DNA of 64,000 bases from Botryllus schlosseri (Eukaryota): NCBI GenBank assembly GCA_051294905.1, contig CM119372.1, forward strand, positions 32,552,001-32,616,000, written 5' to 3'. Every line of letters begins with the position of its first letter. Positions within the stretch are counted from its first letter, which is position 1. The notes under the pieces were generated by a model, which saw nothing but the letters and a program-made list of their open reading frames with translations, was not told where the DNA came from and did no database searches. The position numbers and the translations under genes were made by a program. Positions 13,170 through 61,316 of this stretch are shown one piece after another.

Positions 13170-16100
13170 TAGGAAGTAAAGGAGCGCAAAAGCTACTGAA
13201 GATTTAGAGGGCCCTTCCCCCAAGGAAAGCTCTAATAGGGAGACTGGAGTTAATGACAATATGTCAGTTGTGATAACAGGTGTAAAAAAGCCAATTCGGG
13301 AATATAATCCTATCTGCGTCAACAAAAACTTGCTACGTGTTATCGAAGGTCGATATCGCGATATTCGTGTCCTGCCATCTGGGGACTTGTAGGTTGAATG
13401 TGCTAACAATAGTCAACTATCCAAATTATTGGCATGTGATAATCTGGGAGAGCTAGACAAACCGATAGAAATACGCGCAGAGATTTTAAAAGCCAGAACT
13501 CCAGAAGTGCGTGGAGTGATTATAGCAATGTCCCACTCGACATGTCCGATGCCGAGATAAAAGATACCCTATGTAGTCAGCAGGTTACCTTCGTGAAACC
13601 TCTGAGCTATCGCGCTAAGGAAGGAATAGTACCTAGTTGTTCGGTTTTGCTGTGTTTCTCCTCGACCATCTTATACCTGCAGTTGTTAACATCGGGTTTT
13701 TGCGTTTTCGAACGATGGTTTACAATCCACCTCCGACCCGTTGTTTTAATTGCAACCGCTACGGACACAGGTCTAAGCACTGTCGAAGTCGTCAGCGATG
13801 CTCGAAATGCGGCATCAATCACAGTAACAAAGAGTGCAAAAACCTTCCATATTGCGTGAACTGTGGCGCTGCGCATTCAGCCGCCTATGCAGGTTGTACT
13901 CGATTCCGACAAAAGGCAAAGATAAATTCTATAATGGTGAATGAGAACGTTAACTATTGGGAAGCAAGACAGCTTTATCTTCAAAGACAAGCTCCACCTA
14001 ATTGGCAGTCGGAAACCGATTTTCCTTCACTAACATCGAGTCATGGAAACGTCACGAGATATTCACTAAAACCTCTAACAGTGCCTCACAACCAGAGTTC
14101 GACAACGGCAGCAAGCATTCCTTCTAATTCCTCATTCCAAGATCGGCCTAATACAGTGGATCCGCAAGAATTTGTTACAATCCCAACCACGACATTATTC
14201 ATCTTCATAGCTGAAGTCATGAAAAATACACTTTTAGCTTTCTCGGAGGGAAAGCAGCCACAAATTGAGGAAATCATGGCGAAGTCAGCCGGCGACCAAC
14301 TGGGAATCCAGATACCGGTCATTGAAAATATCACAAACTTTAGTAAGCCATGTGGGGACGAAGGAACCCCCTCACGCATGAACGAGAAGACTCCAACCGT
14401 TGCTACAAGCGCCACGCCAAGTGCGAGTTCCGATACACCAGAATACCAACCGTTCGTTCCAACGCCCATGGGAGGTGTCGATCTAACAACTCCTCATACT
14501 ACTTTGAAGCAGCATAGTACGCCATATCCATCGAATCCTTCACCCTAATGCAATGGAATTGTCGAGGAATCTACCGTAAAATTCATGAGTTGAAATATTT
14601 CCTGCAGAGTACCTACCCAAACCCTGATGTCATTGCCCTCCAAGAGACCCACCTTGTCGCCAAATATACACCTAAGATACCGAATTATGTACTAGTTAGG
14701 AATGATCGTGACATACACGGCGGCGGTGTGTGCCTATTCATTAAAGCGGGGATATCTTTCACAGAGACAATAATTGCGGATATCGAACCGATCGAACTCC
14801 AAATAGTCCACCTTGAAGGTATTACAATCGTCAACGCATATGTCCCTCCGAACAAGTCCATACCCGGATCGGTTTTTCGCAAGTCGTTGGCGAAATTCGA
14901 CTCTCATGTGCTTATCGTTGGCGACCTCAACGCGCATCATCCGATGTCGGGAAGCAATCACCCGAACGCTTATGGTAGGCACATTTTATCTGTGATGGAG
15001 GACCTTGAACTAGTGATGATCAACACTGCCATCCCCACTCGTATCAGCTTATCTTCAACCAGTCTCGGCGCAACATCGTTACTTGATCTTACAATTGCGT
15101 CAAAGGATATTGCGCACAGAGTGCAAACAACAATCACGGACGAACTGTTTGGCAGTGATCACTATGTCATATTGAACAGCCTCGACATGGAAGTCAATAT
15201 CCAAGATCAACATCACCCATCGTGGTCACTCCGTCGGGCCAAGTGGCCAGATTTCAAAAACATTTGCCATCAGCAACTCTCTAACCTCAGTAACGACGCC
15301 GGTCAATTGACGATGGAAGATATAACTAGCGTCATATTCCAAGCCGCTAAGCATACCATTCCGCTTACAAAGGAAGTTAGAAAAAGTAGTGTGCCTAGGT
15401 GGAATTATAGCTGTACGCGAGCTGTCCGGTTGAAGCGGGCCTCTTATCAAAAATTGAAGCGATCCTTTAGCGTTGATAATGTTATCAAGTTCAAGCAACA
15501 GCGAGCGCGTACGAGAAAAACGCTACTCGATGCAAAACGATCTTACTGGGAGTCTTTTTGTAACCCTCGGCATTTCGCGTCAACCAGCAGTGATGAAAAT
15601 ATAGACGCAATACACCGCCAACGCCGCTCCGATTTCTGCAGCGACACCATTCCCGCAGTCCTGACCGAAATTCCGAGCGATGACATTATGAACCTACCTT
15701 TCACCCGCTCAGAATTGTCTGATGTTTTGCGACTTGAGAAGAATACTGCGCCGGGTATTGATGAAATTTGCTCCGCAATGCTTCGAAACCTCAGTGAATA
15801 TAGCCTCCAAAAACTTTTGGATTCTATCAATAATTTGTGGGTTTCGGGCCAGTGCCCAGCATCTTGGCGGCATTCAATTATTGTGCCTATTCTAAAAGGT
15901 AGCAAACCCGCGAATAATACCTCTTCTTATAGACCAATTTCTCTGACGAGCAACATCTGTAAGACAATGGAAAGGTTAATTAATAACAGACTAACTTGGT
16001 GGCTTGAGGGGAATAGAATATTGCACCCACGTCAATGCGGCTTTCGACGCAAACGGTCTACTCGAGATTGCATAATGTCACTACACGACGATATCTATAA

Positions 16101-16690
16101 ATCATTATTCAATAAAAGATTCGTTTTAGCGGTGTTCCTGGACTTTGAAAAGGCCTACGACATGATTTGGAGAGACGGCCTCGTACTTAAACTGCGGAAA
16201 ATTGGCCTCACAGGAAACATACTGCGGTGGGTGCATTCATTCATTAACAACAGAACTTTTCAGGTTCGTCTCAGTAACACCTTATCAGACACGTTTGCGC
16301 TCGATAATGGTATTCCACAAGGAAGTGTATTGTCTCCGACTTTGTTTGCAATCATGATCAATGACCTCCCTCATGACCTTTCGACTAACATCAATGTATT
16401 TGCAGATGACGTACGCATTTGGGATATCGGACTAAATGCTTGTGATATAGCCTCAAACGTGCAAGCCTCGCTCAACTCCATTCAGGAGTGGTGCCCCCAT
16501 TGGGGATTCAAAATTAACGCTAAAAAGTCGGCCGGTGTGATGTTCACGAGAACGCGCAAGTACCCTAATATCAATTTACTTATTGGACAGGTCGAATTAG
16601 GGATGACATTTGATGCAAAACTCAACTATGGTCCGCATTCGCGTACGGTAGTCGCAAAGTGCTCCAGACGGCTCAATGTATTAAGGGCAG
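13170..16690 (+). mobile_element. Non-LTR retrotransposon (I-group LINE), 3'-truncated; 5' boundary approximate
   Basis: Gag-like ORF1 with zinc knuckles followed by APE-endonuclease/RT ORF2. Ends abruptly after RLNVLRA at an unrelated repeat. Confidence 0.9.
13260..14548 (+). pseudogene. LINE ORF1 (gag-like nucleic-acid-binding protein), disrupted
   Basis: LPSGDL*VEC (stop at 13389-13391), RGVI, frameshifts near 13525 and 13670. Knuckles RCFNCNRYGHRSKHC, RCSKCGINHSNKEC, CVNCGAAHSAAYAGC in ORF 13637-14548. Confidence 0.85.
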
Positions 16691-16698
16691 GGCCGTAA
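14548..16698 (+). CDS. LINE ORF2: APE endonuclease + reverse transcriptase (C-terminally truncated)
   Basis: QWNCRG, LQETHL, GDLNAHH, LDL, GSDH (APE). APGID, YRPISLTS, QCGFR, LDFEKAYD, GIPQGSVLSP, FADD (RT). The last codons come from the flanking repeat. Confidence 0.92.
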   Translation: MQWNCRGIYRKIHELKYFLQSTYPNPDVIALQETHLVAKYTPKIPNYVLVRNDRDIHGGGVCLFIKAGISFTETIIADIEPIELQIVHLEGITIVNAYVPPNKSIPGSVFRKSLAKFDSHVLIVGDLNAHHPMSGSNHPNAYGRHILSVMEDLELVMINTAIPTRISLSSTSLGATSLLDLTIASKDIAHRVQTTITDELFGSDHYVILNSLDMEVNIQDQHHPSWSLRRAKWPDFKNICHQQLSNLSNDAGQLTMEDITSVIFQAAKHTIPLTKEVRKSSVPRWNYSCTRAVRLKRASYQKLKRSFSVDNVIKFKQQRARTRKTLLDAKRSYWESFCNPRHFASTSSDENIDAIHRQRRSDFCSDTIPAVLTEIPSDDIMNLPFTRSELSDVLRLEKNTAPGIDEICSAMLRNLSEYSLQKLLDSINNLWVSGQCPASWRHSIIVPILKGSKPANNTSSYRPISLTSNICKTMERLINNRLTWWLEGNRILHPRQCGFRRKRSTRDCIMSLHDDIYKSLFNKRFVLAVFLDFEKAYDMIWRDGLVLKLRKIGLTGNILRWVHSFINNRTFQVRLSNTLSDTFALDNGIPQGSVLSPTLFAIMINDLPHDLSTNINVFADDVRIWDIGLNACDIASNVQASLNSIQEWCPHWGFKINAKKSAGVMFTRTRKYPNINLLIGQVELGMTFDAKLNYGPHSRTVVAKCSRRLNVLRAGP

Positions 16699-17650: not shown

Positions 17651-18643
17651 TAGGGATGGTGTGAACGTGAGGTTCACGTTCGCGTTCTGTGTGTGAACCT
17701 CAGAAATTTAGAGGTTCACGTTCACAAATGAACCTTGGTAAGTTCTGCTTTGTGAACCTTTTTCATATATTAGAATTTTCACTTCATTATAACATCTTTG
17801 GTTGAAATTTATTGCATTTCAACTGCGAGCCACTCTATGCATGGCGCTGGCAGCCTAAAAAATATCAACGCTAAACGAGCACGCACCTTGACAATCTCAA
17901 AAATGTTACTTGCTTCGTTACAAAAGTTTGCTCGGAATATCCACCTTTCCGTTAGTGAATATTTGGTGACTCTCTGCTGCGAGCTTGACCCGCAATCACA
18001 CAACCTCAAGAACGAAATACACTACATGCTGGTAGTCAGCAAATAATGGTCATTCAATCAATCAATGAAATTGATATCGTTGTCAGATGTAAAAAATCTA
18101 GCAGGCGTACAGGTCAATCTTGATTCCATATGTTTATTGTATAATTAAAACCAAATCCGTGCGATTGGAGTGTTGGCTCGGCTACGGTTGCATAACTTGT
18201 TAATGGGGTAATTCGCAATATCGGTAGCAAGTATAGAAAACTGTTCTACACTCTGCTGAATATCAACGTACCAATACCCAGACGCCGAATACATTGTCCG
18301 GTCTCGCTTAGACCGTTAAGGCGTAAGCTAATATCCCTTGCAAGTTCTCGTCGAAATTGTTGGCAGAGCAACGAAAGACATTGACTTTACGGGATTATTA
18401 TATCAGTTGATTACCCCAGTGGATGCATTTGACGACGTTTAAACCGTCAATATGTACTTCAGCATTGTGGCATCATGTGGCGCGAGTAGTCGCTAGGTCT
18501 CGTGTACAATAATATGGGCTATCACTTCACTGTAATGTAGGGTTGGAATTAGCAATGACGTTCACGTTCGCGTTCACACAGAACCTTTCAAAAAGTTTCG
18601 CGTTCACACGAACCTTAACCTTTCAGAGGTTCACACCATCCCT
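17651..18643. mobile_element. hAT-type MITE, GTGAAC/GTTCAC family, copy 1
   Basis: TIRs TAGGGATGGTGTGAAC / GTTCACACCATCCCTA; imperfect 8-bp flanks CTAATAAA / CTAATTAT. Confidence 0.85.
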
Positions 18644-19475
18644 ACTAATTATCATTGAGACGAATATATAAGCGGCGTGATAGGATATAACCATGACATT
18701 GCTGCACATATTGATTTGGAGGCGCGCATGCCGCCCGCCGAAAAACATTGTCTCATTTCTGAATTGAACGAGGAAATAGCCTACACGTTCTTCGTTGATA
18801 GATTTTTAATCGTTGCGCTAAATTAGATGGTGTGTTATCGTTTTTGCCTAGGATTTGAAATTCATTCAAGCGCACGAGCGTTTACTCCAGTAAACGATTT
18901 GCGTACGTAAATAGGGAAATACGTCGAAGCAGCCCAGATCGCTATTCTAGTCCGCATAGCCTACGATTGCCGCGATGCGAGCTAGACAATGCGGTGTCCG
19001 AACTCTGCCCTGGTGTTGAATATCATAGCTAATAGTGATTGGATGCGCGCTTTCCAATTTCTGATCATCACTTTTGTGTATGCACTCTTGTCTGCTTGAT
19101 ACACTAGTATTGTATTGTAAGGTTGACTTTAGAATTCTTACTCATGTGTCGAATGTTTATCTAGACTCCTCCTCACCATCACATCCGTGTAAGCGGTGTC
19201 TTATAAAAGCCTAGAAGTGGGCCGTGCTACAAGTTGGCAGCTACGGAATAAAAATGAAGAAAATTGGTGTAATGACCATAGTAGTCGACGAACACCATGA
19301 ATAACTCAAAAACAAACAAACACTAGTATTATTGAATTGCCGCGCAATGTCACTTGCGAGTTTGTGGTATAATTGGCTGACCTGTACAGTGCAAGACGTT
19401 GAATTAGGTTCTCAAGTATTGATGCACTACCAGATAGTCAGTGGCACTAATTTCGAGTTTATTCGATTCGCTCGA

Positions 19476-21399: not shown

Positions 21400-22271
21400 C
21401 AGGGATGGTGGGGGACGTGAGGTTCACGTTCGCGTTCTGTGTGTGAACGTCAGGAATTTAGAGGTTCACGTTCACAAACGAAGCTTGGTAGGTTATGCAC
21501 TGTAAACCTTTTTCGCATATTACGATTTCCCTTCATTATAACATCTTTGGTTGAAATTTTATTGAATTTTAACTGCGCGCCACTCTACGCATGGCGCTAG
21601 CAACATAAAAAAAAATCAACACCTAAACGATCATGCACTTTGATATTCTCAAAACTTTTACTTGCTTTGTTACAAAAGCTTGCTCGAAATATCCAGGTTT
21701 CCGGTTATGAATATTTAGTAACTCTTTGCTGTGAGCTTTACCCGCAATCACGCTACATGTAGTCAGCGAATTATGCTGACTCGACCAATCAATGAAATTG
21801 ATATCGTTGTCTGATGTGAAAATCCAGCAGGCGTACGTGGTCAATCTTGACTTCATATGTTTAGCTGTATCACAAAACCAAATCCGCGCGATTGGGGTGT
21901 TTCTATATCTGCTGTATAACTTGTTATTGGGGTACTATCGGTCGCAATTATGGAAAGACGTTTTACACTCTGCTCAATATCAACAGCAATACTCAGAAGA
22001 TATTGATTCCATGGGGTTATTATATCATTTAATTGCCCCAGTCGATACACTTGGCGACGTGTAAAACGTCAATATGTAGGGTACTTCCGCATTGTGGCAT
22101 TATTTGTCGCTAGGTATTGTGTACATTAATATGGGCTATCACTTCACTGAAATATAGGTTCGGAACTAGCAATATGACGTCTCGAGGTTCACGTTCGCGT
22201 TCACACAGAACCTTTCAAAAAGGTTCGCGTTCACACGAACCTGAACCTTTCAGAGGTTCACACCGTCCCTA
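21400..22271. mobile_element. GTGAAC/GTTCAC family MITE, copy 2
   Basis: AGGGATGGTG..ACGTGAGGTTCACG start, GTTCACACCGTCCCTA end; body colinear with 17651-18643. Confidence 0.85.
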
Positions 22272-39900: not shown

Positions 39901-42900
39901 GGCCGTGACCCATTTTCCGGTTTGAAAATGTGCTATGGCCCACCTCTTACCTTAGAGTCATAATCCTGGTAAATGCGTGGTAATCGACAGCGCTGATATG
40001 CCTAATTCTCTAAAATACGCGCATTTTTCTCTTACTGATGATATTTAAATCTAGACCTCCGGGGACATGAAATCGCGCGAAGCGCGACAAAAAATATTAA
40101 GTTGTGTAAATATCCTCTAACAAACGACCAACGAAATAATTTTGGGCCCTTCGAGCTCCCCCAATTGCGGGTTTGGGTGCGGCAGTTACGGCCCTCGTAG
40201 ATCATAGGCTAAAACTCTTGAGTATATTATGATCGTACGCTGCACCATTCGCGTCACGAAACATAATGATCAGATCCCCGCATCCGCTGTGTAATTGGTA
40301 CTTTAGTTCCACTATTGTGTGGAATATTATAATCATTCTGGGCCAGCTACGAACAATTCTTTGGTGAATGGGGTACTACAGAGAAGTCTTGCACCAAAAC
40401 AACTGAAGATGCGATCTCAGAATATTCAATCCAATGATAGAATCAATTCATGTGACTCTTACATCATGTACAATGATTTCCGAGCCGGACATTATAAACC
40501 GACTCCAAAGATTAATGAGCCCCGTGAAATCCTCAATTCATTATGATTCGTTGCGCTGGTGCAGTATACCTCCACCAGAAGTTGATAATAATTTGCAATT
40601 ATGGCTATTTTTATCTTACAATAATACGACCTGCCGAAGTACAGTAAATTTATACATCAATTACACTTCATTGCGAGTTCATGCATACCCCTTTCAACGG
40701 CACACGACATATGACCCTGCCGGAATACTTGGCATTACCTTCCAGTTATTATATACTCAAAATTATTTCAGTTGCTGTTAGCCATAGGTTGTCAGAGCAA
40801 GTGGGAAAAGCCGCCGTATCTCCCCAACGTTTTCGACTTGTACATACTGACTCCATACGTGCCACTACGTCTCATCAGAGTCTGATGAAAAGCTTTATGT
40901 ACAGCCTACGTATAATTAGATAATACGAATATATTTTTAGCGATTACCAATTCTAAAACTTTCTAAATAGCTTTGTGGCCCACCTCAAATGCTGCTGTGG
41001 CCCACCAGTGGGCCATGGCCCACCCTTTGAGAGCCCATGGCCTAGTTGTTATGGCCATTCAACTCTTAAATGGTACTCAAACATATCCGAAGAGCTTCTT
41101 GGAGGTACAGAACTTCAATATACAATTGAGCAGTATATTGGGTTTATTTCAATATGAATATACTTGTTCCGACGCGGCACTGAAATCAATGAGTGGCGCT
41201 TTATCAGGTGTCGGGATCCTGTCTGCTGCACACTAAATCTGGCAATCTTGGTACTAAGCAAGCGTTGCGTATCTCAAATCTCTTCTGTTTCAAATACAAG
41301 CAGTCCAAAACATACAATACGGAATAGCTTGTTCAGAATATAGATACGTTAAATGGCGAGATTCGCAAGATTGCTTGCTCGTCCGATAGCAGTCGAAATA
41401 GAGAGAGAAATAACAGCAACAGAGCAATATAAAGGTAAACGAGAACGGACGGCGCAACAATTAAATTAACCAATCATCAACCAAAACAGAACAATTAAGA
41501 CTTGTCGAAGAAAATAACGGAATGCAGTTGAATTAAACTGACTCACTAAAACATCCAAACTGATTAACTAAAAACATGACTCGTCAAAACACTCCCCCAC
41601 TTGACCGACTATGATCGGTCAACAGATTCTTCCATCAGCAAATCTCTCCAGCCTGTCGTTCAACGAAATCCATGGATCAGGTTTCAACGAAACGTCCATT
41701 GACGCGGCTGTTTTAACTTCACCTTTGTGGTGGATTCGTCCCAACGCAGTAGGCAATAATGTGTCTGTATCGAAATCCCGAAACGCGGGAGTGGAAACGT
41801 CAACAGTTGATACCATACACTTAGCGTCAATCAATGGTCCCGCAGAAACGTGTAACAATTTGTGGTGGGGTTTCCCACAGCCAGTAACGGAACAACGCTC
41901 CTTACATTGATGAAAATGCTTCGGGTGGTCTTTGTGTCCTTTCGGGGATAAGCATCTAAAACACACTTTACCAGGCTTCATAACCAAGACAGCCAATCGC
42001 TGGGCGGGATTTAATTTCAGAAATTTAAAACAATCTTTCAATAAATGAGGTTTTGAGCAGTAGGTGCATGATAGCCGGACGGATTGAATCACGAGAGACT
42101 GGGCAGAAAATGCATTGTCAGGTTTATCGGTACCAACACTAACCAGCTCATCTTTATGTGGGGGCTTTTCACGTACGTCAACAGGGCAACGCCCATTCTG
42201 CGACTTACGCAACGATTCCATCGTCGCCAACTCGGTTCTTAGAAACTCAAACAGGAGATCAGAATCAGGAATCTTATCGGCTTCGATCAAGGGGCTAGTT
42301 TTTCTGATCCAACGCTCATGCAACGTACCAGGCAACTGGGACTCTAGTACCTGTGTAAAGAGTTGGTCCCAAGAGACGTCATACTGCGATAAAATGGCCC
42401 TTTTAGCATTAGCGGCATCGAGAAGTTGTCTGACTTTGTCGATCTTAAATTCTACTTTCTCACCCTGTAGTAAGCCTTCGATGTGATTTCTCACGATCGC
42501 TTGCTTCTTTCCGTACCTTTTAAGAACGGCATCTACTGCAGGCTCATAATTCACTGCCGCCGAGGGGAAACCATTGAGAAGGCCGGATGACGAACCTTTA
42601 AGAGCTGCCTTTAAATACGAGATTTTGTGAAACGGACTGACCTTTGGATTTTTGTGAACCAATGGCTCGAACGACTCCCAAAATGCCGGAAAAGTCAAAA
42701 TATCGCCATTGAATGTAGGCGGCACTATTCCACTCGGGAGGGATCCAGCAGCTTTTTCCGCTTCTTCGGCAGCTTTCAGCGATGAAGACTTGGATTTGGC
42801 TAGAGTAATGTGTACAAAATAAATTTCTTTTGATCTTCTCATGCCATCAATGATTTCGGTCTTGAAATCACCATCGTCAAGCTGGTCGACTTTTGAATCC

Positions 42901-45900
42901 ACGAATGCCTTGAGATCGGTCATTGATATTTCTACCGACCGTATGAAGACCTCAATTTCTTCGACGAAGGTGGAATGTGCATGTTTCTTCTCCAGAGCTT
43001 GCAAAGACTCTAAGAGGTCAGCATTCATGCGCCTGAACTTCTTTATAACAACCTCGTGTAGACATGAATGTTCACTTCTTGCCGATGAATGGTTATCGGA
43101 CTGCTGGCGAATTTCTTCTAATTTATCGGACTGCTGGCGAATTTTTTCTAATTGCAGTCTGAATCGTCTTTCGGATTCTTCACGGTCTTGGGCGTGTTTC
43201 TGCTTGATCTCCTCGAGCTGCAGCTGAAACTTACGGTCAGAAGCTTCCCGATCTAATTGCTGCTGCTGCCGATGGAGATCTAGCTGATGCTTCATCATCT
43301 GAAAAAGCATAACCAGTTCAGATGATGTACTCTCGGTGGTGCTCAATGGAGAGGGCTTCGGTTCTTTCTTTTGTGAAGGTTTGTCGGAATCTCGGATTTT
43401 CCCTAATCGGTCCGTCAATACAGCTTCGCTCCCACTTGTAGCTTCGCCAAGTTCTTGTAATTCGGGTCGTAAATCGTCGACCGTCATCTTAGCTAATGGC
43501 TTCCAAGTCGGTGCCAAGGTTGGAGACTTGGGGGATTCCGATGGAGACTTCACAAACGACATCGTTCAATTGAATATAAAAACTATGTAAATGTAGCAGA
43601 TTTAGTGCCAAGCAGAGTCGATCGAACTTCGTAGCGCAGCAGAGTCTTGAATGTAGACTAATACCATGCGGCGCCTGAATTGAAGAACGTATCGACAATA
43701 TCGGCTTTAATGGGCGTTCTTGCGAATTGTTCCGACGCGGCACTGAAATCAATGAGTGGCGCTTTATCAGGTGTCGGGATCCTGTCTGCTGCACACTAAA
43801 TCTGGCAATCTTGGTACTAAGCAAGCGTTGCGTATCTCAAATCTCTTCTGTTTCAAATACAAGCAGTCCAAAACATACAATACGGAATAGCTTGTTCAGA
43901 ATATAGATACGTTAAATGGCGAGATTCGCAAGATTGCTTGCTCGTCCGATAGCAGTCGAAATAGAGAGAGAAATAACAGCAACAGAGCAATATAAAGGTA
44001 AACGAGAACGGACGGCGCAACAATTAAATTAACCAATCATCAACCAAAACAGAACAATTAAGACTTGTCGAAGAAAATAACGGAATGCAGTTGAATTAAA
44101 CTGACTCACTAAAACATCCAAACTGATTAACTAAAAACATGACTCGTCAAAACAATACTATTCAATTCAAACATATCCCACAACAACTTCCTACTTCAAA
44201 AAACGCAAATGTTCAAAAAGTAAGTAGTGTCATATCTAAAGCAAAGTATCGCAAAGTAGTATATAAACCACCACCATCTGAGTAAAGTGAAAGTAGGCAA
44301 AACCTACTCGAGTACTCCGTCAAAGTGGACGTACCTCGTTATTGACGACCGCTGCACACTGAAAATGAACCAAGCGTGCTTTTTTCTCATTTATAAAGTC
44401 ACTTGTTGATACATTAGCTTCTTAGTTTTATCATATCGTAAGGTAAGCATCTAATCTCGGCACATTTTATTAACAGACAAAATATCAACATCCAGTCAGA
44501 TGAAGTTTTGAGGTTTAAAGTACCTGTTCTATTCACACCTTCGACTGCGTTACGTGAACGTTCTCCCATCGTTCCGTAGTCCGTATTTTGCTGCAATTCG
44601 GACGTATCTTGTACGGCATCCAGATGTCTGAGTCAGTAATGAGTGGAATTCACATGAAGTATTGATTTTATGGGAAGGACATAGTCACTATGATGACCAT
44701 GCACTAACGAATCGCGAGTTACATGCGATGGGCCATACATTTCATTCCTAAGCAATCGGTTCGTCCGCTCTACACGAAGTCTTTAGTGGGCAAGAGCAAA
44801 ATAAAGTGAAGACTGGTGAAGGTAGATATATTAGGTAGGGATGGTGCATGCGAACCCCTGAAAGGCTCAGGTTCGTGTGGACGCGAACCTTTCTGAAAGG
44901 TTCTGTGTGAATTGCTAATTCCAACCCCGCATATGTCACTGAAGTGATATATTAATGTACGTAGACTGGGGCTGTTCAAAAATAACTACTTTTCCCGGAT
45001 TCCAACCATTCACTGATTAAATTGTCAGGTTACCTTAAAAAACGCTGCACACCAAATTTGGTTCAATTCTAACAAGTATAGGACTCCGCAGATCCAATTA
45101 AAAATTTCAATTTATTATAGAAAATTATTAAAATAAATTCAAATTGTTGAGCTGTCTTCAAAGACGATGCAAAACAAATTTGACTCGATTCCAACCAGTA
45201 GAAGCGGAGTTATTTCAGTTTTTCGTTGATAATCCTCGGATGCCACTATACTGAAATATATGCTGACTTTTTAAACATCACAAAATGTATTAACTGGAGC
45301 AATCAAATGCTATAATAATCCCATAAAATCAATATTTTCCGTCGCTTTGCCAACAATTTCGACGATGAATGGCAAGGGAATGTAAGCTTGCGCCTTAACA
45401 TTCGAGGCCAGACCGGACAATTTATTCGGAGTACGACTATCGAGCAGTTGGATCCCGAAAGTCTGCTTTATTTTTTACAGTAGACAACGACCAATTTTTT
45501 TATATCAATTTCAATGATTGGTGGAATAAGCCTCATTCGCTGACTACTTACATGTACTGCGTATTTCGTTCTTGATGTTATGTGATTGCGGTGATTGCGA
45601 GTCAAGCTCACAGCAGAATCATTAAATATTCACAACCGGAAAGCTGAAAATTTCGAGCAAACCTTTGTAACATAGTTAGTAAAATTTTTGGGATTGGTTA
45701 GTAGGGCCGGGCAAAATCGAGTACCTGAGTGATTCGATTCTGAATCACGTAATATGCTTCTAGTCGAGTCGAGTAATCGAGTATCACTCATTATGACGTC
45801 ATAACAAAATCTGATATGTCAATATGTACCTTTTATGCGACCACAAAGAATGTAATGTCTGTTATCCGTCACATTAAAGATACTTTGGTATTTTTTCGAC

Positions 45901-48900
45901 CCTACCGATTTCATTGCACTTGGTGACAATGTTGTAGGATGATCATGATTTCGGAAATGTGCTGTTCCCAGTAACGTTCGTAGCTTTGTACTATATGTTT
46001 CGTACGCTACGATACGGCCAGTCGGCCAAACTAGGTTTCAAGGGTTCAACAGTGAAAATTATACCATCAAAACTATAATTCTCGATGATAAAATAACTTT
46101 CAGTGGCGATGAGCGTATAATTTCAGTACTCGAAAAAAATCGTCTTTCACTACTCGACTCGTATCATTAAAATTAACACTCGATTCAGATTCGAGTACTC
46201 GAATCATTGTGCCCATCCCTATTGGTTAGGTGTATGCTCGTTTAGTGATAATTTGTTATGCTGCCAGCGCCTCGCAGAGAGTGGCCTGAAGTTGAAATGC
46301 AAAGAATTTAGACCATAGATGTGATGGAGACGCGATAAATTGTAATACATGAAAAAGGTTTACAGTGCAGAACCTACCAAGGTTAGTTTGTGAACGTGAA
46401 CCTCTCAATTTCTGAGTTTCACATACAGAATGCGAACGGGAACCTCACGTTCACACCATCCCTAAAATTAGGTTCAAAATAAAATTATCAATATAGCTTC
46501 TCGACTTTTGTAATGACAAGGAAACATGCCATTATGTCACATGTATATCCTGTAAATGATCGCAATCCATAGCCAAATAATCCAAAATCTAATACCGCCT
46601 TCACATGCATGATATCATGATGATGACGACTTAATTGTGACAACCATTATTTGAATATTCATGGGGCTTTTCATCATCGATCCCATTTTAAATGCAGCGT
46701 CATGAAAAGCATTAGACATGTAGTGAGCCCAGTAACGAAGTACTCTACTTTGAATTTGGTAAAGTATAAAGTAGGTTTGGGATGTGCTTGCATCACTTGT
46801 TTGAATGAAATCGTCATGACAACCGGGCGAACCGCCCATCCACCACGGTTACTGGATATAGTTTTGAAAATTACACCCATTTGTAGTTTCGTTGATCATT
46901 TTCTAGTAGCGAAGATGTACCCTACAATTTCGAAAGTACTCGCCTCCGATTAAATGCTTAAAGTATGAGAGCAAATACTAGATTAGCGACAGTAACTACG
47001 TTGAACACCTCCGCGTATGTGATTCGGAAGACGATAAAGTGAACAATAGGGCTTCAGGATGATCAATTCATTGAATCGATTTCCCGCGCACAAATCATGG
47101 ATTAGCGGTACTACTTTGTTCTTTCATGTGCATTATTGAAAACAATTTTATTTAATATGCGATTCAAGAAGTTAATACTAACTGGCGTATTCCGATAGCT
47201 TCTGAAAACCCATCGGGCGATTTGGATAGGATAACTCGGGCATACTGAAGCACCTCCGTCATCTGGTGAATCACGACCACCTGCAATTCATAATGTCTCT
47301 TTTTAAAGCAGTAATCATTTCTATTTGCGTAGCAGTAACGCCGTACTACTCGTATACATGCAAAAGTAGAAATTCTCAATATGTGTAAAAACTGGAATTA
47401 ATACAAGTGGAAAAGGTTCTGGGAATTACTTGACTAAGTAATTTCAAAATGTACATTTGTTCGAAATGTCGCACAGTTCTATCGTAAGCAGTGGGCGGGG
47501 ATACTTTCAAAAGTACAGGATGCATCGTAGCGACTGAAATAAAATTACTAATGACTCAAAGATGATGTGTAGTTTCCAGAGGTGGTCAAAGTAGTCAAGA
47601 AATCTACTCAAGTAGAAGTAGAAGTAGCGACGAAAAAATCTACTCAAGTACGAGTAGAAGTACTTCTTCCATGAGTAACCTAAAACTACTTGAAGTAGAA
47701 GTAGAATTGACCGACTTTAAAAGTACTCAAGTAAGTAAGTAGTTGTGGAAACGATCCTAATTCGTTCACATGGATTGTAAAGAGGTGCAAATTGAGCTAT
47801 GCGATAGGTGACGAGCTTGATTCATATTGATGCATACCAGCAGGTATCCAATTTTCGATAGCATAAGCATTTGTCCACATCATGGGAGGAAAATGATAGT
47901 ATTGATATGGAAATGCGATGCTAATCCTCTGTCTTCTCGAACAGCACGTTTTTGAAAATAGCATGGTATGGCGCCATTCCCCATGGCCCGTAGTTTAGTC
48001 GAAGAGCAATACGGGAAGTTGTATAGGATACGTTGTAAACACTTTGCGCGATTAGTAAACGTTAATAAAAAATATGGTGGACCGTAAAAATGCCATATTG
48101 TGTAGCTTTATTTCCAGAAATTAAAGGCATTACTACACGTGCTTTTATACTTCAACTTTATGTTATCCAGACAAAAGAACTGATATTAATTATAACTCAA
48201 AGTATATGATACTGGGAATTGAAAGTGAATTATAAAAAATACTTCTAAAAGCAGAACATGTATTTCATGTTTTTTGACTGTATGTTATTACATTCGTGTG
48301 TGACTGTGTGCGCACTGCGCAGCGTGCGGGAGTAGAGCTTACACGTAAGTTCGTCGTAGCGAGAAGACTTGCATTATCGGCATTTACCATGTACCCAACC
48401 CTAATGAATTGATATATTGGTAAATTTGGGGTACCTGGCTAATCGAACGCCTGAAAATCTTAATTATGGATTGCACCGTGTGTTAATTGATCAGAGAGAA
48501 GCAGTCATGGCGACGGCTGCATGACAACGCTGTTCTCAAATCAACATTGTTTTCGTCATTATCGGCGAGAAATGGCTTTGAAATGACATAGCTGTCGTTA
48601 AAATACATCCATTAAAAACAATTCATTCCTTGCATATGTGGACAAATGGGCGAATAATGTATCGATTCAGCAATCCGGCCCGCCAAGTACTTAATTTTCC
48701 TATATCCGGCCCGCCGACTGGAGAAGTTGCCCGCCCCTGACCTAAACTATATTCTCCGATACTTTCGTGAAATCATACTGGTCACCCCGCATCCACTGAG
48801 TGCGAAGCGCGACGAAAATTCTGGGCTTTACTAAACTTTGATGAAAATTAAATGTTGATACTGCGGGAAAACAGCCCCGAAATTCCTCAGGCTATCTTCC

Positions 48901-60124: not shown

Positions 60125-60652
60125 TAGGGCCGGGCAAAATCGAGTACCTGAGTGATTCGATTCTGAATCACGTAATATACTTCGAGTCGAGTCGAGTAAT
60201 CGAGTATCACTCATTATGACGTCATAACAAAATCTGATATGTCGAAGTTCAAATATGTACCTTTTATGCGACCACAAAGAATGTAATGTCTGTTATCCGT
60301 CACATTAAAGATACTTTGGTATTTTTTCGACCCTACCGATTTCATTGCACTTGGTGACAATGTTGTAGGATGATCATGATTTCGGAAATGTGCTATTCCC
60401 AGTAACGTTCGTAGCTTTGTACTATATGTTTCGTACGCTACGATACGGCCAGTCGGCCAAACTAGGTTTCAAGGGTTCAACAGTGAAAATTATACCATCA
60501 AAACTATAATTCTCGATGATAAAATAACTTTCAGTGGCGATGAGCGTATAATTTCAGTACTCGAAAAAAATCGTCTTTCACTACTCGACTCGTATCATAA
60601 AAATTAACACTCGATTCAGATTCGAGTACTCGAATCATTGTGCCCATCCCTA
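60125..60652. mobile_element. TCGAGTA family MITE
   Basis: Near-identical to 45702-46221; flanks GTTATGAC / CTCATGAC (6/8). Confidence 0.9.
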
Positions 60653-61316
60653 CTCATGACACATCTTGGTATGGAGCATCATTAAAATCAATAGAGACCA
60701 ATAGCTACTTTTGGTAAAATCTGATAGCGATAAATGACGAAACAGCTCTCACTCGACTTAGGAGACGAAATTATCACCCACATAGTTCAGTGACAGACTC
60801 AAAACGTGTTACAGCGTTCGATACTAACATTAAGATTTACCGTGCCAAATAACATGACCTATCTTTGTATAGAACATCGTCAAAATCAATGGAGACCAAT
60901 ACCGGCTTTTAAGTTAAATCTGTTTGCTGTACATGACGGATCAGCACACACTGAACTTCGGAAACGATATTACTACCCTAATATTTAAACAGCAACCCTG
61001 AAACTTGGAGCAGTGTTAAATACCACCATCACGACCTAACAGAGCAAGTTTCAATAATTATGCTGGTGCGAAACGCCGTCAAAATTGACCTATACCAGCA
61101 AAGGTCGACTCAACGCATATGACGGTAACCTATAGTTCAGATATAGATACGATTGTTACATCACACCTTAGGGGCAACTGGGCAAAGTTGCACCACTTGC
61201 TCGGTAATTTTATGAAAAGGAGAGATTAAATCACCGTTTCTTTATTTTGAGCGGCTTTGAGAGAACAGACAGTGGAAGCATGTTATGAGCGCTACCGGGG
61301 CATGCTTCGGCTAGGC

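Follow-up and report, generated by a model that had tools for sequence, protein, structure and literature searches.

BEL/Pao element and surrounding features of the window

The window, a 64,000-nt stretch of the Botryllus schlosseri genome, contains on its minus strand a compact retroelement (Table 1). The LTRs had been described as identical in the initial annotation, which was confirmed over 427 nt for each copy, together with a target site duplication (TSD). The element is a young gag-only derivative, non-autonomous because its single ORF has no pol domain: Pfam identified DUF1759 (E 1.6e-22) in this ORF, and no RT, RNase H or integrase domain. The 495-Mb genome has 67 DNA matches to the window element, and its pol-bearing relatives show ~80% DNA identity to it. 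One relative (L013) encodes a full BEL/Pao polyprotein of 1934 aa, with DUF1759 Gag, protease, Peptidase_A17, integrase and DUF5641; the RT motif YVDD is visible, and RVT_1 is absent from the Pfam hits. Protease, RT, RNase H and integrase thus follow one another in L013 in the BEL/Pao order, while the window copy is without pol. Both the domain set and order of L013 and the LTRs, polypurine tract and 5-bp TSD of these elements are as in canonical Belpaoviridae (PMC8742986). However, canonical members have an 18-nt primer binding site (PBS) complementary to tRNA-Arg or tRNA-Gly and are primed by host tRNA (PMC8742986), whereas the elements described here lack the TGG expected of such a site and have a self-complementary PBS. 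The element is therefore assigned to BEL/Pao by its proteins, and departs from the family in its PBS. No RNA family or ribozyme was identified by Rfam in 41000-44300 at E<=1.

Table 1. Coordinates of the retroelement and its parts within the window
Feature	Position	Strand	Remarks
Retroelement, whole	44154-41165	-	2,990 nt, gag-only BEL/Pao
5' TSD	44155..44159	-	AGTAT
5' LTR	43728..44154	-	427 nt, TG...CA, same sequence as 3' LTR
Possible second helix, first strand	43946..43951	-	6 nt complementary to 43704-43699; weak (12/200 shuffles as stable)
LTR 10-mer	43924..43933	-	LTR nt 222-231; putative 3' end of self-primer
Putative RNA cut	43923..43924	-	LTR nt 231/232; in aberrant copies elsewhere (L150, L151, L152) inverted U5 is inserted exactly there
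PBS	43718..43727	-	adjoins LTR, without TGG; exact complement of 43933-43924
Possible second helix, partner strand	43699..43704	-	13 nt 3' of PBS
Gag-only ORF	41619..43562	-	647 codons from ATG; DUF1759 and Cys/His knuckles
Polypurine tract	41592..41603	-	adjoins 3' LTR
3' LTR	41165..41591	-	427 nt; own copy of 10-mer at 41370-41361
3' TSD	41160..41164	-	AGTAT

The gag-only family of ~3 kb elements appears to be a successful one (L001-L008, L016-L028), with many copies that have identical LTRs and ORFs of ~640-710 codons. A SAP domain is present at the N-terminus of a related full polyprotein. One element copy (L003, G000:C26:267542-273501) lies inside a tandem array with a period of ~177 bp. 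Two others (L008 and L020, both on G000:C11 and ~130 kb apart) have an upstream flank in common, which suggests segmental duplication; L020 also has a large insertion in its 5' LTR. Elsewhere in the window, a LINE-type ORF2 piece with endonuclease and RVT_1 domains (14518-16698, plus strand) is preceded by an ORF of 303 aa without Pfam hits (13637-14548, plus strand). Further dispersed repeats, some of them near-identical, are found at 45702-46230, at 60125-60661, and at 17651-18644 with copies near 21401, 26411 and 51721.

Complementarity between PBS and LTR

The sequence immediately 3' of the 5' LTR, ATTCGCAAGA (43727-43718, minus strand), is the exact complement of TCTTGCGAAT (43933-43924), with a match length of exactly 10 nt; this is the observation from which the initial annotation proposed priming from the element's own transcript, and it was reproduced here. 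For comparison across the host genome, 150 matches to PF05380 were scored and 20 elements with long ORFs and differing scores were picked by hand (that is, not at random); with the window element and L013 these make up 22 elements, which fall into 12 families by LTR similarity. For the 20 picked elements, LTR-sized windows around both LTRs were compared, rather than whole elements. A perfect complement of 10-13 nt in the element's own LTR, starting 0-5 nt after the LTR, was identified in 19/22 elements, and the remaining three (L033, L037, L043) have a pairing of 9-10 nt that includes one G-U. The paired sequence differs from family to family. TGG within 8 nt after the LTR was found in 0/22, so that neither the ICTV-type 18-nt site for tRNA-Arg or tRNA-Gly nor relatives with a normal TGG PBS, which the initial annotation had listed as evidence against its proposal, occur among these elements.

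The single 10-mer in the window had a chance probability of ~4e-4 and was spotted after the fact; as an explanation for the match, however, coincidence is refuted by comparison of the 19/22 elements with controls that reach >=10 nt in only 3/434 cross-family pairs, 0/22 opposite-strand tests and 4/622 downstream windows, and we regard it as negligible. The match is thus beyond chance, as had been calculated for the window copy by itself.

Covariation of the two sites in relatives, suggested earlier as a check, was detected as five paired base changes that preserve the match, in families A (1), B (1), D (2) and H (1). Family A is that of the window element. Across 28 of its loci, 19 have PBS G with LTR C, five pol-bearing copies have PBS A with LTR T, in two the PBS lacks a partner within 480 nt, and two are without the PBS motif; since the five A/T copies form one sublineage, they count as one paired change. 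A genome pattern search for the same family returned 27 places (21 G/C, 5 A/T and 1 discordant), against 0 for the control pattern. One family member, L021, has a longer PBS whose perfect complement covers 17 nt, the extra pairing lying further upstream in the LTR.

Two sequence features recur at the LTR site. The paired stretch ends in A-C/T followed by C/G in 21/22 elements, and CA is present <=3 nt upstream of the paired stretch in 8/12 families (background 0.106, binomial p 5e-6); these are possibly determinants of the cut site or of folding. The CA was also considered as a Tf1-like transcript initiator, a reading that was dropped because family K has this CA, yet its fossil junctions (see below) reach further upstream. 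A general second helix between the leader and the PBS flank was unsupported: depending on which of the 22 rows was folded, between 7 and 162 out of 200 shuffles reached the same stability.

Comparison with host tRNAs

The initial annotation had called the PBS tRNA-independent, subject to a search against host tRNAs. The PBSs of the other families match at most 6 nt of 17 tRNA genes of four isotypes (63 of 36,083 candidates scored); the window 10-mer, on the other hand, matches a host tRNA-Ala(TGC) gene (L174, G000:C1:7956750-7956860) at 9/10 positions in the anticodon arm, ending at tRNA position 40. This raises the alternative of copia-like half-tRNA priming, in which a tRNA-Ala(UGC) cleaved behind position 40 would pair through its anticodon arm with the PBS, the match to the LTR being secondary. 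The sole mismatch is at A37, a position that in eukaryotic tRNA-Ala is edited to (methyl)inosine, and as inosine could pair with C. Nevertheless, the tRNA-Ala match does not extend beyond 10 nt, and the A/T variant of the five pol-bearing copies would add a mismatch to the tRNA while the LTR site changes in step. The low scores of the other families also argue against a half-tRNA, as does a genome search in which the 10-mer had to precede a T-loop motif: it yielded two matches (control 1), neither of them a tRNA according to ARAGORN. With four isotypes covered, we consider half-tRNA priming very unlikely for these elements. The sites of families F and L may resemble the anticodon arm of tRNA-Asn, and we speculate that self-primers descend from captured half-tRNA primers.

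Relatives in metagenomes and RT-RNase H phylogeny

A metagenome scan gave 80 loci; an LTR-pair check was applied to 50 of them and a PBS scan to 37, and 19 had a usable LTR/PBS junction. TGG-type PBSs, with best self-matches of 4-7 nt, are present in 16/19 of these loci. The three others (L070, L087 and L071), which belong to the clade of the window element, are without TGG and match their own LTR over 9, 11 and 11 nt, respectively, with LTR ends set by eye. No relatives were identified among viral contigs. The L070 locus (L070:1300-2100) has an LTR end nearly identical to that of the window element, followed by a repeated PBS-like motif, and this copy sits behind the apparent 3' end of another copy.

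An RT-RNase H tree was constructed from 29 rows, with L114 and L130 left out, and with elements whose pairing includes a G-U standing for families C and G. The 15 self-complementary rows are divided between two clades, each with 100/100 support: one of families A, D and J with the three metagenome loci L070, L087 and L071, and the other of families B, C, E-I, K and L. The free tree requires two changes, but a single clade of the self-complementary rows is not rejected (p-AU 0.098). A larger quick tree placed a Patella protein in the first clade.

Fossil junctions in the window family

Candidate remnants of priming were sought in the genome as PBS sequences that run on into the complement of the LTR. 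For the window family this search returned five loci: L021, and L149, L150, L151 and L152. L149, L151 and L152 consist, in element sense, of LTR nt 1-231 and, behind these, U5 in reverse complement, starting with its last base; L150 has LTR nt 128-231 with the same continuation. Such a junction is what would be predicted if the first minus-strand DNA had been joined to a primer whose last base is nt 231. The inserts in L150, L151 and L152 are 99, 74 and 87 nt long, and each returns to the LTR exactly at nt 232, with a 3-nt microhomology at the return in L151 and none seen in L150 or L152. This exact ending at nt 232 would mark a cut in the RNA at 43924/43923. A single element has L149 and L150 as its two LTRs, as would fit a passage through reverse transcription. 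The window-family fossils carry the whole U3.

These insertions could have arisen if minus-strand DNA reached the end of its template at nt 232, the RNA having been cut there, and then jumped onto its own strand and copied back through the primer before being transferred. They could also arise from a plus-strand end with the PBS sequence annealing to leader RNA; given this alternative origin, the fossils are more direct proof of pairing and strand joining than of priming. A related possibility is that the pairing is real but serves a structural role (packaging, dimerisation or strand transfer), with priming by some cellular RNA. The junctions could in principle be produced under this scheme by plus-strand fold-back, and the support for priming comes from genome sequence. 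However, a cellular primer would need a different 3' sequence for each of 12 families, changing together with the LTR five times, and neither the exact end at nt 232 nor the family K fossils that begin with the leader would be explained; on these grounds we rate a purely structural role as very improbable.

Pattern searches for families B, E, D and H found no fossil junctions, so that two of the six families searched (2/6) gave fossils. tRNA sequence is present in 0/9 fossil junctions from families A and K, which is further evidence against half-tRNA priming.

Family K fossils and a putative spliced leader

Five loci of family K have a junction of the primer-cDNA type. In four of these (L188, L190, L191 and L192; 4/5) the LTR-derived portion starts at 35 nt upstream of the cut, immediately behind a CAG of the LTR that follows a T-rich tract, and is preceded by a common block of non-LTR sequence, upstream of which the flanks differ. 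The joint between block and LTR is exact in L188, L191 and L192 (in L192 the block is truncated) and decayed in L190. L192 has its own inverted LTR copy, which is without the block. Returns to the LTR are seen at about primer end +1 in L191 and at about +8 in L190 (about nt 249, not 242); the other three K fossils have no such return.

The block has 444 pattern matches in the genome, some of them counted two to three times, and among the 100 matches listed the sequence downstream of it is highly diverse. At three loci (L193-L195) the block measures 24 nt, and a GT splice donor follows. Its end is also much like that of a Ciona spliced leader, as given in the available part of PMC7986045. Because of the Ciona-like end, the diverse downstream sequence and the GT donor, the block is putatively identified as a host spliced leader. 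No sequence of this leader was found in the literature searched, and PMC13746493 contained no match to leader terms. The block heads hundreds of genomic sequences, many of which are repeat families, and some copies run into a GT donor and a hairpin.

Since RNA is the only level at which such a leader can be attached, the K fossils would link the primer with the 5' end of a processed element RNA. The primer of family K may thus be ~59 nt long, composed of the 24-nt putative spliced leader and 35 LTR nt, the last 11 of which pair with the PBS. A plus-strand end with the PBS sequence could likewise anneal to such a leader and copy it. The K fossils also indicate that the paired stretch does not consist of the first nucleotides of the transcript.

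These fossils also bear on the question of which end of the RNA supplies the primer. If the LTR site were a cleavage and poly(A) site, the 3' end of the genomic RNA could itself fold onto the PBS; such 3'-end self-priming accounts equally well for the complementarity and covariation, and explains the family A fossils that extend through all of U3 without strand transfer. A poly(A)-like hexamer is present 12 nt upstream of the site in metagenome locus L071. However, the putative spliced leader at the head of the K fossils, joined 35 nt upstream of the site, indicates a 5' end; in three LTRs the insert gives way to the LTR exactly at nt 232; and AATAAA/ATTAAA is present 10-40 nt upstream of the site in 0/22 elements, and within 140 nt it is found only downstream. 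A few sense reads in RNA run X14 that pass the site point, weakly, in the same direction. Priming from the 3' end thus appears very unlikely.

Primer 5' end in the window family

Four RNA runs gave 87, 16, 23 and 0 reads on 43000-44200, with no joints and no pile-ups of read starts or ends, and because these reads are too few no start site could be mapped. The sense reads of run X14 that run past the site may derive from any copy of the element. The initial annotation had predicted a transcript start at ~43933, in the manner of Tf1, which is probably too narrow. Folding gave a predicted pairing probability of 0.84-1.0 for an RNA starting at nt 222 and ~0.38 for starts at nt 181 or 194 (28-41 nt further upstream), and so favours nt 222; the lengthened PBS of L021, in turn, suggests that the primer of the window family is at least 17 nt long. 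In the window family, YAG is absent from the 160 nt upstream of the site, and the leader finding may therefore not apply there.

Proposed priming mechanism

We infer the following scheme. Minus-strand DNA synthesis would be primed by the 5' leader of the element's own RNA, in which a stretch of 10-13 nt in R folds onto the PBS beside U5, consistent with the complementarity and covariation. The RNA would then be cut at the 3' end of this stretch (43924/43923 in the window, as marked by the fossils), the enzyme probably being, as the analogy with Tf1 suggests, an RT RNase H that pol-bearing relatives provide. Extension of the released 3' end across U5 could give the primer-cDNA junction that is seen as fossil DNA, after which the cDNA would stop at the cut and transfer to the 3' R. 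Plus-strand synthesis would copy the primer back into the PBS, as a result of which the PBS would follow changes in the LTR. Unlike in Tf1, the paired stretch need not comprise the first nucleotides of the RNA.

Family-wide complementarity, the five paired changes and the fossil primer-cDNA junctions together support self-priming, as had been proposed for this locus, and make it very likely that these BEL/Pao elements prime themselves in some way. That the primer is a cut 5' leader of the element's own RNA is also likely, with slightly less confidence.

Comparison with known and predicted self-priming elements

Cer7, a BEL element of Caenorhabditis elegans, reportedly encodes its own tRNA-like primer, outside the LTR. 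Both Cer7 and the elements described here would be BEL/Pao elements that supply their own primer, but here the candidate primer is the LTR leader, and Rfam finds nothing in the element.

Self-priming is listed for Tf1/Sushi, Tcn1 and TAR/Houba/Osr-1 in the available text of PMC6317226. As described in the accessible parts of PMC7175516 and PMC5341516, the primer of Tf1/Tf2 consists of the transcript's first 11 bases, released by an RNase H cut between bases 11 and 12. Tf1/Tf2 of Schizosaccharomyces pombe, Tf1/sushi elements and Tcn1 resemble the present elements, as far as the available sources go, in having no tRNA PBS and a PBS that complements 10-13 nt of their own LTR; in Tf1, too, the primer is released by cutting where the paired stretch has its 3' end, as is proposed here from the fossils. 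However, Tf1/sushi elements are Ty3/gypsy chromoviruses, and the elements described here, which are BEL/Pao by Pfam, are not members of that group. Moreover, according to the same sources the Tf1 primer is an 11-mer, whereas the paired 11-mer of family K would be the end of a ~59-nt leader that includes the putative spliced leader; and the Tf1 mechanism was shown experimentally, whereas the BEL/Pao case is drawn from genomic evidence.

For the plant Ty1/copia elements TAR/Houba/Osr-1, self-priming was predicted from an own-LTR complement of >=10 nt located 0-5 nt after the LTR, in a different superfamily and kingdom, and the available text mentions no fossil junctions (PMC6317226). This criterion was also the one applied here, and, as in Tf1-type self-priming, the PBS complements the element's own LTR and not a tRNA 3' end. 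In fungal GalEa copia elements, which have a Conserved Hairpin Site, the tRNA PBS has likewise been lost in one lineage while relatives keep it; however, according to the part of the paper available, the GalEa hairpin lies downstream of the LTR and its authors found no LTR complement, unlike in the elements described here (PMC5445492).

The replication of BEL/Pao elements is described by the ICTV as poorly understood (PMC8742986). No report of a self-priming BEL/Pao element was found in the literature, although subscription papers, Repbase/GyDB entries or supplements could hold one: self-priming BEL/Pao elements are absent from the accessible portions of PMC3601003, PMC5443660, PMC4558846, PMC13524379 and PMC5445492, PMC3118150 does not mention primer, PBS or tRNA, and PMC554778 does not mention PBS, tRNA or priming.

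Implications for BEL/Pao replication

Experiments have shown self-priming for Ty3/gypsy elements of fission yeast, and it has been predicted in some chromoviruses and in copia lineages of plants. If the scheme proposed here is true, BEL/Pao would be a third LTR superfamily with self-priming, and its architecture would differ, a long leader's 3' end serving as primer instead of the first 11 bases. We hold it to be somewhat more probable than the contrary that in several marine animals BEL/Pao elements have swapped tRNA priming, once or twice, for a long capped self-primer cut within the leader; that in at least one family a host spliced leader is trans-spliced onto 35 LTR nt, so that host trans-splicing builds the 5' end of the primer; and that faulty insertions record both the primer and its cut site.

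The analysis provides exact, testable coordinates for the proposed cut, and aberrant insertions of this kind could be mined so as to read the primer of a retroelement directly from genome sequence. These findings bear on how often LTR elements abandon tRNA priming, and would mean that LTR finders that demand a tRNA PBS will miss whole active clades.
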